From: an uncultured Gammaproteobacteria bacterium
Lineage (GTDB): Bacteria; Patescibacteriota; Microgenomatia; Levybacterales; UBA12049
NCBI GenBank assembly: GCA_964482825.1
Contig: CAYZZG010000001.1
Location: forward strand, 63,754-109,673
Direction of reading: 5' to 3'
Length of the DNA stretch: 45,920 nt
Positions 715-3,917 of this stretch are shown here, piece after piece. Within the stretch, counting starts at the first letter, position 1. Each line of letters starts with the position of its first letter. The translations under genes and the position numbers were made by a program. The notes under the pieces were generated by a model, which was not told where the DNA came from, did not search any database, and worked only from the letters and a program-made list of their open reading frames with translations.

Positions 715-1902
715 ATGGCAGATGCAACAAAATTTCAAAGGACAAAACCACATATTAATATTGGTACAATTGGCCATGTAGATCATGGAAAAACTACACT
801 TACAGCAGCAATTTCCACAGTGTTATCAAAACAAGGAATGGCCCAAGCCAAGAAGTACGAAGATATTGACAATGCTCCAGAAGAAAAAGCTCGAGGAGTT
901 ACCATTAATATTTCTCACATAGAATACGAGACAGACAAACGCCACTATGCCCACATCGATGCTCCAGGACACGCAGATTACATTAAAAACATGATTACCG
1001 GCGCAGCCCAGATGGATGGCGCAATATTGGTAGTTTCGGCTCCAGATGGTCCAATGCCACAAACCCGCGAGCACATCCTTTTGGCTCGACAAGTTGGCGT
1101 ACCAGCAATTGTGGTTTTTCTTAATAAAGTAGATATGGTACAAGACGCAGAGCTTTTGGATTTAGTCGAAATGGAAGTTAGAGAGCTTCTGACAAAATAT
1201 CAATATCCGGGAAATGATACTCCTATTGTTCGTGGTTCAGCGCTTAAGGCTTTGGAAGGTGACACTGATGCAGAAAAACAAATTATGGCATTAATGGAGA
1301 AGGTAGATGAATATATTCCCACCCCCACACGCGAAACAGATAAGCCATTCTTAATGCCGGTTGAAGATGTCTTTTCCATTAAGGGTCGCGGAACAGTAGT
1401 CACTGGAAGAATTGAGCGAGGAATGGTCAAGGTTAACGAGACCGTAGAGATTATTGGTATTAAGGCAACTAAATCAACTGTTGTTACCGGTGTTGAAATG
1501 TTTAAAAAGCAGCTCGATGAAGGGCAAGCAGGAGACAACGTAGGACTTTTACTTAGGGGTATCGAAAAAGCAGACGTTGAGAGAGGACAAGTAATTGCAA
1601 AGCCGGGAAGTATAACTCCACACAAGAAATTTGAAGCAGAAATTTATATTCTAACCAAAGAAGAAGGCGGTCGCCATACGCCATTTTTTACAGGATACAG
1701 ACCGCAATTTTATATTCGAACAACCGATGTAACAGGCGAAGTTACACTTCCGCAAGGGGTAGAGATGGTTATGCCAGGCGATAGTACCAAGATGACAGCA
1801 GAACTTATTGCGCCGATTGCAATAGAAGAAGGACTTCATTTTGCAGTCAGAGAGGGTGGAAAAACAGTCGGTGCGGGAGTTATATCTAAAGTTATCGCGT
1901 AG
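715..1902 (+). CDS. tuf: elongation factor Tu
   Basis: 395 aa with [14 protein letters not shown] and NKVD GTPase motifs. Full-length EF-Tu-like sequence. Confidence 0.98.
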
Positions 1903-1920
1903 TACATTGAAAGTTTTGCA

Positions 1921-2229
1921 ATGCCTAGAGGAAGAATTAGAGTACGTTTAAAAGCATATGACGCGCGAGTTATCGACTCATGTTGTCAGCAAATATTAGA
2001 TACGGCAATTCGAACCGGAGCAAAAGTTGTGGGTCCAATACCACTGCCTACTGACAGAAGCGTTTACGTTGTAAACAAATCGCCTTTTATCGACAAAGAC
2101 GCCCGCGATCACTTTGAAATACGAGTTCATAAACGACTAATAGATATTGTTTCACCAACCGATAAAACAATTGATAGTTTAACGCATCTAGAATTACCAG
2201 CGGGTGTTGATATTGAAATTAAAATGTAA
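1921..2229 (+). CDS. rpsJ: 30S ribosomal protein S10
   Basis: 102 aa, IRVRLKAYD...HKRLIDI pattern, follows tuf. Confidence 0.97.
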   Translation: MPRGRIRVRLKAYDARVIDSCCQQILDTAIRTGAKVVGPIPLPTDRSVYVVNKSPFIDKDARDHFEIRVHKRLIDIVSPTDKTIDSLTHLELPAGVDIEIKM

Positions 2230-2327
2230 TCCCACGCATCTTCCCGTTGCCTTCAGGTACTATCCGTCGAGCCAAGCTCGACTCGTACACGGTTTACGGA
2301 ACGATGCAGTAGGATAAGGGGTTTAGG

Positions 2328-2356
2328 TTGAATTTGATGGTTGTTTATAGTATAAT
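2328..2356 (+). promoter_or_regulatory. near-consensus sigma70 promoter inside the rpsJ-rplC spacer
   Basis: TTGAAT 2328-2333, 17-nt spacer, TATAAT 2351-2356. Confidence 0.55.
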
Positions 2357-2436
2357 TATAAGCATCATAAAGGAGGTTTTAAAGCCTAACTAGGCTTCAC
2401 GAGTTTATTTCGAACGACAACGTTCTCAATATGTGG

Positions 2437-2462
2437 GGTAGCCGGATAGGCTACCTTTTTTT
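2437..2462 (+). terminator. intrinsic terminator-like hairpin directly upstream of rplC
   Basis: GGTAGCC-ggata-GGCTACC (perfect 7-bp stem) followed by T7. Ends 11 nt before the rplC ATG. Confidence 0.6.
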
Positions 2463-2473
2463 GTTTTGGGACT

Positions 2474-3124
2474 ATGATTCATACATTAATAGGACAAAAG
2501 GTAGATCAAGTACAAGGGTTTCTGGAGAACGGAGTACGTATTCCTGTGACAAAAATTGCCATGTCGGGCAATACTGTTACTTTGCTTAAAACGCAAGAAA
2601 AGTCTGGATACAGTGCAATCCAGCTTGGATTTGGAACAAGAAAGAGGGCAAAAAAAACAAGCCCTCTTTTTTTGCGTGAAGTAAGAATAATTGATGGCGA
2701 GGTGCTCCTACAAGTAGGAGATGAGGTAAAACCATCTGATGTGTTTGAGCCAGGAGACATTATTGATGTTTCCGGAGTATCAAAAGGAAAAGGATATGCA
2801 GGTGGAGTAAAACGGTATCACTTTAAAGGAGGACCACGTACTCACGGACAATCAGATAGAGAAAGAGCACCAGGATCTATCGGCCAAACAACAACTCCGG
2901 GAAGAGTATATAAAGGTAAGCGCATGGCTGGAAATATGGGACATGTAAATGTAACGATAAAAAACTTGCAAGTAGTTGCAGTGCTTGATGATTATCTACT
3001 GGTTAGAGGTCTTATTCCAGGCCCAAAAAATAGCATAGTAACGGTGATAAAGAGAGGAAAAAATAAAAAATTTGTGCCTCTTTATCAAGAGGCGGAGAAG
3101 GAGGAAGAAAAGAATGCCAGCTAA
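2474..3124 (+). CDS. rplC: 50S ribosomal protein L3
   Basis: 216 aa, GKGYAGGVKRYHFKGGPRTHGQS motif, operon position. Confidence 0.95.
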   Translation: MIHTLIGQKVDQVQGFLENGVRIPVTKIAMSGNTVTLLKTQEKSGYSAIQLGFGTRKRAKKTSPLFLREVRIIDGEVLLQVGDEVKPSDVFEPGDIIDVSGVSKGKGYAGGVKRYHFKGGPRTHGQSDRERAPGSIGQTTTPGRVYKGKRMAGNMGHVNVTIKNLQVVAVLDDYLLVRGLIPGPKNSIVTVIKRGKNKKFVPLYQEAEKEEEKNAS

Positions 3125-3917
3125 AGAAGTTAAAAGTTCCCAGTTCGTTCTGCTGAGCAGAACTTCGAGGGGCAAGCAAAAGTTAAAAGTTAAAAGTTCA
3201 ACTAAAAAATCAAAAGTTACAAAGGCAGAAGTAGCATCATCTGTTAAAACATCAAAGACTGGATTGACGGTTGATCTTTTTGATGTAAAAGGAAAGGTTA
3301 CGGGTACGATTGATTTACCTAAAGAGATTTTCGCTGTACCTGTTAATGAAAAACTTATGATACAGGCTGTACGAGTGTATTTGGCAAATCAGCATAGAGG
3401 AACTGTCTCAACAAAAACACGCGGAGAAGTGCAGGGGTCAACACGAAAAATATATAGACAAAAGGGTACCGGGCGAGCAAGACATGGTTCGCTTCGAGCG
3501 CCAATTTTTGTTCATGGAGGAATAGTATTTGGTCCAAAGCCCCGAGATTATTCTCTTACTTTGCCTAAAGCCATGAGGCGTTTAGCTCTCTTTTCTGCGC
3601 TGTCAACACAAGTTAAAGCTGGAGCAGTAAAAATAGTTGGGGACATAGAGAAAATTGAGCCAAAAACAAAGGCAATGGCCAATTTTATGAAACAAATTGG
3701 TATTCCTGAAAAGAAGAAAAACGTTTTACTCGTTTTGCCAAAAACAGAAAAAGGTAAAGGAGATAGTATTATGCGAGCAGCAAGAAATATAGAAGGAGTA
3801 GATATCACCTTTGCAAATCAACTACATACCTACGCAGTAATGAAGCATAAAACGCTTCTTTTTAGTTTAGATGCAATTGATTCAATACGTACAGTATTTG
3901 CAAAAGAAACAAAATAA
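3114..3917 (+). CDS. rplD: 50S ribosomal protein L4. Start ambiguous: ATG 3114 gives a ~50-aa repeat-encoded extension, in-frame TTG 3264 gives a canonical N-terminus
   Basis: RQKGTGRARHGS motif. AAGGAGG lies 9 nt before ATG 3114. The 3072 start in the ORF track lies inside rplC. Confidence 0.88.
   Translation: MPAKEVKSSQFVLLSRTSRGKQKLKVKSSTKKSKVTKAEVASSVKTSKTGLTVDLFDVKGKVTGTIDLPKEIFAVPVNEKLMIQAVRVYLANQHRGTVSTKTRGEVQGSTRKIYRQKGTGRARHGSLRAPIFVHGGIVFGPKPRDYSLTLPKAMRRLALFSALSTQVKAGAVKIVGDIEKIEPKTKAMANFMKQIGIPEKKKNVLLVLPKTEKGKGDSIMRAARNIEGVDITFANQLHTYAVMKHKTLLFSLDAIDSIRTVFAKETK
3125..3224 (+). repeat. A-rich heptamer (AAAAGTT) arms flanking a GC-richer hairpin core (GTTCTGC-tga-GCAGAAC, 3147-3163)
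   Basis: Direct reading. Same arm/core architecture as 18485-18600 and 44806-44911. Confidence 0.7.

Follow-up and report, generated by a model that had tools for sequence, protein, structure and literature searches.

A putative attenuating leader of the rplC–rplD ribosomal-protein operon adjoins a dispersed structured repeat in the rpsJ–rplC spacer of a Levybacteria genome

In the genome of the ultra-small Patescibacteria bacterium studied here, the gene for ribosomal protein L3 (rplC) is preceded by a compact unit with a promoter, a structured leader and a strong terminator. The window, meaning the whole stretch of 45,920 nt that was analysed (positions 63,754 to 109,673 of contig CAYZZG010000001.1, assembly GCA_964482825.1, order Levybacterales), harbours this unit in the 244-nt spacer that separates the end of rpsJ (2229) from the start of rplC (2474). 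The unit is most likely, with a probability of about 0.6, a transcription-attenuating leader for rplC–rplD and the genes downstream. Two unrelated elements make up the spacer, a dispersed repeat (2225–2319) and the promoter–leader–terminator unit proper (2328–2462). A preliminary description had merged both into one unit. Its promoter, leader and terminator are real, conserved and placed directly before an rplC gene that has no Shine–Dalgarno (SD) sequence, but the GC-richer block on their 5′ side does not belong to them. Gene regulation in Patescibacteria (candidate phyla radiation, CPR) is, to our knowledge, almost unexplored. For their largest ribosomal-protein operon, the unit would provide a candidate cis-regulatory RNA; it is absent from Rfam, and its design is clear and testable: promoter, SD-like box, two hairpins, terminator. 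The unit and the two flanking genes are as follows.

1921–2229, plus strand: rpsJ (S10), from the list of open reading frames (ORFs); last gene ahead of the spacer.
2328–2356, plus strand: sigma-70-type promoter TTGAAT-17-TATAAT, recognised by sequence and found at the same distance to hairpin h1 in relatives with GGAGG-type leaders.
2369–2377, plus strand: SD-like AAAGGAGGU, recognised by sequence, no start codon behind it.
2382–2397, plus strand: hairpin h1, AAGCCU-aacu-AGGCUU, fold of -6.7 kcal/mol; family consensus AGCCUA-loop-GGCU.
2398–2435, plus strand: variable hairpin h2, outer stem CACG/UGUG, inner stem GAACG (2412–2416)/CGUUC (2421–2425).
2435–2462, plus strand: predicted intrinsic terminator, stem GGGGUAGCC/GGCUACCUU, core 2437–2443/2449–2455, loop GGAUA, U7 at 2456–2462, -14.5 kcal/mol.
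2474–3124, plus strand: rplC (L3), from the ORF list, with an L3-typical N-terminus; first gene of the rplC-rplD-rplW-rplB... operon.

The coordinates given in the preliminary description were each confirmed against the sequence. The promoter hexamers with their 17-nt spacing are present at 2328–2356, none of the start codons ATG, GTG and TTG occurs within 12 nt after AGGAGG (2371–2376), the hairpin AAGCC-taacta-GGCTT occupies 2382–2397, and GGTAGCC-ggata-GGCTACC (2437–2455) with T7 (2456–2462) leaves 11 nt to the rplC ATG. Transcription would start near 2363, judging from the position of the promoter. The terminator has nine pairs, including five G–C pairs, a 5-nt loop and U7 directly after the stem; read from its sequence, the segment 2435–2462 is an intrinsic terminator in the usual sense of a G+C-rich hairpin with an immediate U-run. 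It is the strongest terminator-like site within the first 12 kb of the window and one of only 33 sites with a perfect-stem hairpin and a U-run in the 0.98-Mb genome. The leader as a whole folds better than its shuffles (z = -2.8), and AAAGGAGG at its 5′ end can pair with CCUUUUUU at the 3′ flank of the terminator. Taken alone, the promoter match is not above chance, with 35 promoter-like sites in 12 kb versus 31.7 expected. An Rfam search of 1700–3200 at E up to 10 returned no meaningful match to the leader (an overlap with GibS scored 19 bits versus a gathering score of 115, E = 9.3), a search of the whole window at gathering score returned no match, and a search for tRNA and tmRNA found none.

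The element recurs in single copy at one position, with its anatomy and its pairing maintained. A relative from another family of the order has 72% identity over 2372–2461, likewise between rpsJ and rplC, and combines a promoter-like TTGAAC-17-TATACT, GGAGGU, an identical h1 and an identical terminator with a second hairpin of other sequence. The pattern GRTAGCY-N2-8-RGCTAYY-T5 is found exactly once in 66 of the 245 genomes of the order, in 33 of 103 genera (3 matches for the reversed pattern as a control). Among 30 fetched pattern loci, 28 are flanked by rpsJ and/or rplC, the remaining two being chance matches elsewhere. A covariance model comprising h1 and the terminator (R1) gave one match each in 67 of the 245 genomes; all seven new matches lie between rpsJ and rplC, as does every leader copy checked for context. 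The preliminary description had proposed a covariance model of the spacer as a check on its conservation, and the leader indeed proves to be conserved and single-copy in this set. Beyond it, 400 genomes sampled across the class added one marginal R1 match outside the family (E = 0.009) and nothing else.

For comparison, 61 distinct spacers with the terminator pattern were collected. The terminator stem is 100% paired in 66 distinct sequences, pair 2 alternating between G–C, G–U and A–U, with few double changes. In h1, 81% of cells are paired, compensatory changes are few (e.g. GCC:GGC to GCU:AGC) and GCCU is invariant in alignment A2. For h1 and terminator together, 92% of cells are paired and double changes occur in 5 of 12 pairs, in few cells. 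The terminator stem is near-invariant though L3 is only about 50–60% identical among these genomes. At the position of h2, relatives have a hairpin of different sequence (e.g. GUUAC/GUAAC in L008), which begins with a conserved CAC(G)AG; h1 and this CAC motif are both conserved in the family. The leader is a conserved structured element in the 5′ untranslated region (UTR) of a ribosomal-protein operon.

The geometry at rplC speaks for attenuation. The U-run measures 5–10 nt (mode 7) in the 61 relatives, and the distance from its end to the rplC ATG has a median of 11 nt, being ≤12 nt in 34 of them. In the other 27 the gap is 13–117 nt, and there the U-run remains with the hairpin, not with the start codon. 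Judging from this spacing, no promoter can fit between terminator and rplC, and therefore rplC must be transcribed through the terminator. Of the two options entertained at the outset, an attenuation leader and a stand-alone small RNA (sRNA), the 11-nt geometry favours the former. A separate idea, that the folded leader places the SD box beside the rplC ATG, was rejected: the effective spacing would still be at least 18 nt, and family members without the box lack a local SD as well.

In the attenuation model, a sigma-70 promoter would start the RNA near 2363. The transcript would present first a full-strength SD-like AAAGGAGGU without an ORF behind it, next h1 and the variable h2, and last the strong intrinsic terminator, with the end of its U-tract 11 nt before the SD-less rplC start. 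Transcripts from this promoter and any read-through from tuf–rpsJ would have to pass the terminator to reach rplC, rplD and later genes. Since all transcription into rplC would pass the terminator, the element would act as a transcription attenuator, and terminated transcripts would be leader RNAs of ~100 nt. Termination in vivo and its modulation are predictions from this arrangement. The effector would most likely be an operon product acting on h1 and/or on the sequence-conserved terminator hairpin; the analogy with Escherichia coli suggests L4 as a candidate. Alternatively, the SD-like box could be a binding site for 30S subunits. Like a STAB-SD sequence, the box may in addition shield the 5′ end against RNase J.

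Several observations weigh against this model. About two-thirds of the family have neither a GGAGG box nor a good -10, and these leaders may be read only from upstream. No convincing antiterminator was found in the window's family: the 5′ arm of h1 can pair with the 3′ arm of the terminator over only 4–7 bp, and pairing is no stronger between native h1/terminator partners than between swapped ones (p = 0.25). Near-invariance of the stems leaves h1 and terminator with only weak covariation. Comparison of the 61 leaders with 23S regions of three relatives, by motif and by BLAST, revealed only short matches at chance level and no convincing mimicry of rRNA from which a protein ligand could be deduced. 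Finally, the tuf leader in the window also ends in a weak hairpin and U-run before an SD-less ATG, and such hairpins could be a general habit of the 5′ UTRs of this organism rather than regulated terminators.

A second, non-homologous leader family occupies the same site in other Levybacteria, in single copy, in 62 of 245 genomes (e.g. L197–L228, L021, L026). Its members comprise TTGCAT-17-TATAAT, GGAGGU, a box GRCURCAUAG, a variable hairpin and a terminator AGCGACU..AGUCGCU-U6. The box pairs over 8–11 bp with the loop and 3′ arm of the terminator (mean ~-11 kcal/mol, mean z -3.3 versus shuffles), shows compensatory variants such as GCUGCA:UGCAGU versus GCUACA:UGUAGU, and pairs better natively than when swapped (p = 0.04). 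This sister box is plausibly an antiterminator, and complementarity of this kind would be required for regulated attenuation. In the sister leaders, the box is overlapped by a 3-codon frame at SD distance, UUG-RCU-ACA-UAR. In the window's own family, two pairings were considered as antiterminators and rejected: a:b′ (AGCCUA:UAGGCU) is short and does not coevolve, and a′:b amounts to 4 bp. The presence of two non-homologous leader families at one site in sister lineages offers a natural comparison for the evolution of attenuators. More widely, 37 of 49 Patescibacteria loci have a terminator-like hairpin and U-run ≤100 nt upstream of rplC, versus 0–9 of 49 in control windows. The operon boundary has thus shifted, with a terminator-like site between rpsJ and rplC in most Patescibacteria sampled, which affects annotation of the S10 operon.

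The 5′ part of the leader is more variable. In the GGAGGU leaders (~20, including the window), TTGnnn-17-TATAAT lies 25–28 nt ahead of h1. Counted strictly, such a promoter is present in 17 of 61 leaders versus 5.8 expected from shuffles; by eye, an impression that was not counted, nearly all GGAGG-type leaders have a promoter. GGAGGU stands 6–8 nt before h1 in ~20 related leaders and recurs in the sister family. Its distance from the predicted 5′ end is ~5–8 nt in the GGAGGU leaders and ~6 nt in the window. AAAGGAGGU is fully complementary to the 3′ end of 16S rRNA, a fragment of which on contig C72 reads ..GGAUCACCUCCUUUC. Elsewhere in the genome, 15 of the 27 occurrences of AAGGAGGT have a start codon behind them, i.e. 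they are working SD sequences, and the organism uses canonical SD and anti-SD sequences. RNase J is encoded as well (488 bits, above cut-off). An SD without an ORF near a 5′ end is the definition of the STAB-SD stabilisers (PMC4113751). The window's box agrees with it in 16S complementarity, in the absence of a start codon and in the presence of RNase J, the position of the 5′ end being predicted. As in the Bacillus thuringiensis cry3A case (PMC4113751), an SD-like sequence that does not direct translation and can pair with the 16S 3′ end would sit near the 5′ end of a long leader in a host with RNase J. The box studied here differs in belonging to a predicted attenuator leader of a ribosomal-protein operon and in being degenerate or absent in about two-thirds of its family.

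Other leaders of the family carry different features at this place. In ~40 of them (e.g. L015, L024, L028) a conserved box, GAUGCCCAAAC-N-AAUUAAACA(UGC), is found upstream of h1, where window-type leaders have the promoter spacer and -10; no good -10 is present there, and the box is degenerate in the window (TTGATGGTTGTTTATAG). A mini-ORF of 5–7 codons, AUG-GAG-GUN-...-GCC-UAA/UAG (MEVxxA), runs across the GGAGG box into the 5′ arm of h1, where it ends. The frame is kept in 13 or more GGAGG-type leaders (among them L111, L107, L093, L095, L135, L152, L190, L192, L193, L196, L213 and L220), and in the AUGAGGAGGU leaders it is maintained through a spacer longer by 1 nt. The window has AUA in place of the AUG, and other members have frames of 2–4 codons. 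The MEVxxA frame may encode a leader peptide.

The element could instead be a constitutive leaky terminator that sets a fixed ratio between tuf–rpsJ and the downstream genes, its hairpins and SD-like box serving as mRNA-stability elements. This explanation is rather unlikely, although it would agree with the lack of an antiterminator or coevolving alternative pairing in the window's family, with RNase J and an SD-like box at the predicted 5′ end, as in STAB-SD (PMC4113751), and with the wide occurrence in Patescibacteria of pre-rplC terminators of unrelated sequence. A plain terminator needs a conserved structure, not a conserved sequence, and therefore the near-invariance of the stem over 35 genera, set against the divergence of L3, counts against it. 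So do the conservation of h1 and of the CAC motif and the explicit complementarity of box and terminator in the sister family; moreover, feeding a strong constitutive terminator from a dedicated promoter would be wasteful. Distinctly unlikely is the stand-alone sRNA gene, which would produce a stable, trans-acting RNA of ~100 nt and serve the rplC operon only by incidental read-through. A promoter and a strong terminator ~100 nt apart are the classic layout of such genes, the AAAGGAGG/CCUUUUUU pairing would seal both ends of the terminated RNA, and the sequence is conserved beyond the needs of a plain terminator. Yet wherever its context was checked, the element stands immediately ahead of rplC and nowhere else, no promoter of rplC can fit behind it, most family members have no recognisable promoter of their own, and no Rfam family matches; nor was complementarity to a target seen, though no search aimed at it was made.

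It is tempting to consider a ribosome-sensing version of the attenuator, in which 30S subunits would bind the 5′ SD-like box. The full-strength, ORF-less box would titrate free 30S subunits. Once bound, a subunit would mask the segment next to the box, which is h1 in the window and the terminator-complementary box in sister leaders, and formation of the terminator would depend on this masking. In this way the main ribosomal-protein operon would receive direct feedback from idle ribosomes at the level of transcription, without a protein repressor, as would suit genomes stripped of most regulators; we regard this version as very unlikely. Highly improbable is the explanation by translation, whereby hairpin and U-tract would serve the SD-less rplC as a site of ribosome loading or as an operator, i.e. 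either a U-rich enhancer of the S1 type or a translational operator bound by a protein. The end of the U-run 11 nt before an SD-less ATG, the similar layout of hairpin, U-run and SD-less ATG at tuf, and the additional role of L4 as a translational repressor at the E. coli S10 leader (PMC3616713) are in its favour. Against it, the U-run follows the hairpin and not the start codon in the 27 of 61 relatives with a 13–117-nt gap, and hairpin and U7 have all features of an intrinsic terminator; it is in any case no alternative in the strict sense, being compatible with the attenuator.

Regulation by conditional terminators is well established for ribosomal-protein leaders (PMC7247131), and in the E. 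coli S10 leader L4 acts through the terminator hairpin and an upstream hairpin (PMC3616713). The leader described here would be functionally analogous to that of E. coli, not homologous with it. Both precede an operon encoding L3, L4, L23, L2 and later proteins, and both place an upstream hairpin and a terminator hairpin with U-run shortly before the first gene. The similarity in logic claimed in the preliminary description is thus upheld: in both, hairpins followed by a terminator stand just ahead of the first gene of an operon encoding L4. The E. coli leader needs no obvious antiterminator fold, which fits the absence of a convincing one in the window's family. It differs in being located upstream of rpsJ, where it heads the S10 operon, whereas the element here lies downstream of an rpsJ that belongs to the tuf unit. 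In E. coli the L4-stimulated termination is NusA-dependent. Furthermore, the Rfam scan revealed no sequence or model similarity to that leader with its helices HD, HE and HG (whether Rfam holds a model for the S10 leader was not confirmed), the terminator here looks intrinsically strong, and a 5′ SD-like box is present.

A cis leader with a conditional intrinsic terminator, as proposed here, also resembles the L20 leader of Bacillus subtilis. The L10, L13, L19 and L21 leaders are further terminator-based ribosomal-protein leaders. A candidate L4 leader in Archaeoglobi likewise stands before rplC-rplD-rplW-rplB (PMC7247131). Confinement to one lineage is a feature that the present element shares with these motifs. 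It differs from the terminator-based leaders in its Patescibacteria host, in the absence of an Rfam match, in its weak covariation and in that no rRNA mimicry was found. The 23S comparison drew on three relatives, the metagenome-assembled genome (MAG) of the window being without 23S. In two of them, L157 and L159, h1 (GCCUA-AC-UAGGC) resembles a hairpin of domain V, GCCUA-GUGG-UAGGC, after GGUCAUAGUGAUCC; the likeness is too short for mimicry, and an exact-anchor search, the only one made, found no such hairpin in the 23S of the third.

The GC-richer block of the spacer has another nature. The features concerned are listed below.

2225–2319, plus strand: dispersed structured hairpin repeat, a copy matched by covariance model R2 (62.7 bits, E = 1.7e-17), overlapping the rpsJ stop codon.
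2266–2282, plus strand: perfect 7-bp hairpin GTCGAGC-CAA-GCTCGAC inside a copy-specific 19-nt insertion in the apical loop of the repeat.
33403–33479, minus strand: second R2 match in the window (31 bits).

The stem 2236–2247/2296–2307 reported earlier, with 10 of 12 pairs, and the perfect hairpin at 2266–2282 are both in the sequence. Their attribution to the leader unit does not hold, for the block is one of the multiple copies of a dispersed structured repeat. It is missing from the spacers of the closest relatives, and its fold alone is not significant (z = -1.7 versus shuffles). BLAST of the block in its own genome found no second copy; a 31-nt match in another genome led to the repeat's conserved core, CUUCAGGUACUAUUCGUACACGG, with nested stems on either side. 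An alignment of eleven copies forms a rod with 98% of cells paired and compensatory changes in 10 of 15 pairs, far in excess of shuffled and slid controls, and on these alignments the structure of the repeat is proven by covariation among the other copies. The 19-nt insertion of the window copy is absent from the 10 others (alignments A4, R2). Model R2, built from these 11 aligned copies of an element of ~77 nt, matched 154 of 245 genomes of the order with 1–19 copies per genome. The window's own genome has seven R2 matches, of which nhmmer found six. Copies lie upstream of mreB, rpsU, rplC, small membrane-protein genes and a 16S gene, as well as inside a sister-type rplC leader.

Being multi-copy, in varied contexts and with a structure kept by compensatory changes, the element at 2225–2319 is therefore a dispersed structured repeat. 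It is of the REP/BIME/ERIC kind, present in Levybacteria and other Patescibacteria, with a passenger copy at the rpsJ stop codon. Like those repeats it is multi-copy, lies at gene boundaries, has hairpin stems covarying around a fixed core and differs in insertion position between genomes. Unlike them it is specific to Patescibacteria and uncatalogued, has a conserved asymmetric internal loop with an apical hairpin, and has copies inside another leader and inside an RNase P-like RNA. Separating this mobile structured repeat from the true leader matters for RNA motif alignments built on rpsJ–rplC spacers. Identity with the bacterial small signal recognition particle (SRP) RNA was ruled out, the element being multi-copy. 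RF00169 (Bacteria_small_SRP), the only SRP model searched, gave no match at E up to 1 in 12 Levybacteria genomes, two of them single-contig; the SRP RNA of this lineage may be either very divergent or of another type.

Copies inside sister-type rplC leaders are found in L290 (G160:C1:223021-223097) and L205, between the GGAGGU box and the CUACAUAG box; in that of L205 the apical stem is fully compensated (CAUGCAU..AUGCA, not CAGGUAC..GUAC). The second copy in the window is associated with an RNase P RNA-like gene on the minus strand (33060–33490), which received no Rfam call at gathering score. This gene has GAGGAAAGUCC at ~33408–33398 and GGUGAAACGG further on, and the repeat copy (33403–33479) forms the hairpin just 5′ of the GAGGAAAGUCC box, at the would-be P3 position.

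As regards the surrounding locus, tuf (715–1902) precedes rpsJ by 18 nt, nadD lies upstream of tuf on the minus strand, and the remaining S10/spc genes are located 3′ of rplC. The S10 protein is 83–95% identical to that of Levybacteria MAGs, its best matches assigning the organism to Candidatus Levybacteria; a metagenome search for close relatives found none of the same genus, the top L3 identity being 62%. Upstream of rplC there is a U-rich stretch and no SD. The genome mixes SD-led and SD-less genes, hence an SD-less rplC is not exceptional. The tuf leader (617–714) consists of a promoter-like TTGACG-17-TAATAT, then AUAAGCCU-uacgag-AGGUUUAU, U7 and 15 nt to an SD-less ATG, and has the words AAGCCU and ACGAG in common with the rplC leader. 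In about half of the 61 relatives, a small hairpin spans the rpsJ stop, the last codons (AAAAUGUAG) pairing with the sequence just downstream; in the window this site is occupied by the dispersed repeat. Within the rplC coding sequence, a terminator-like AGAGGGC-a8caa-GCCCUCU followed by T7 is found at 2642–2672 (RKRAKKTSPLFL). Relative L008 has an L3 shorter by 52 residues than that of the window, and the segment 2642–2672 may be an in-frame insertion.

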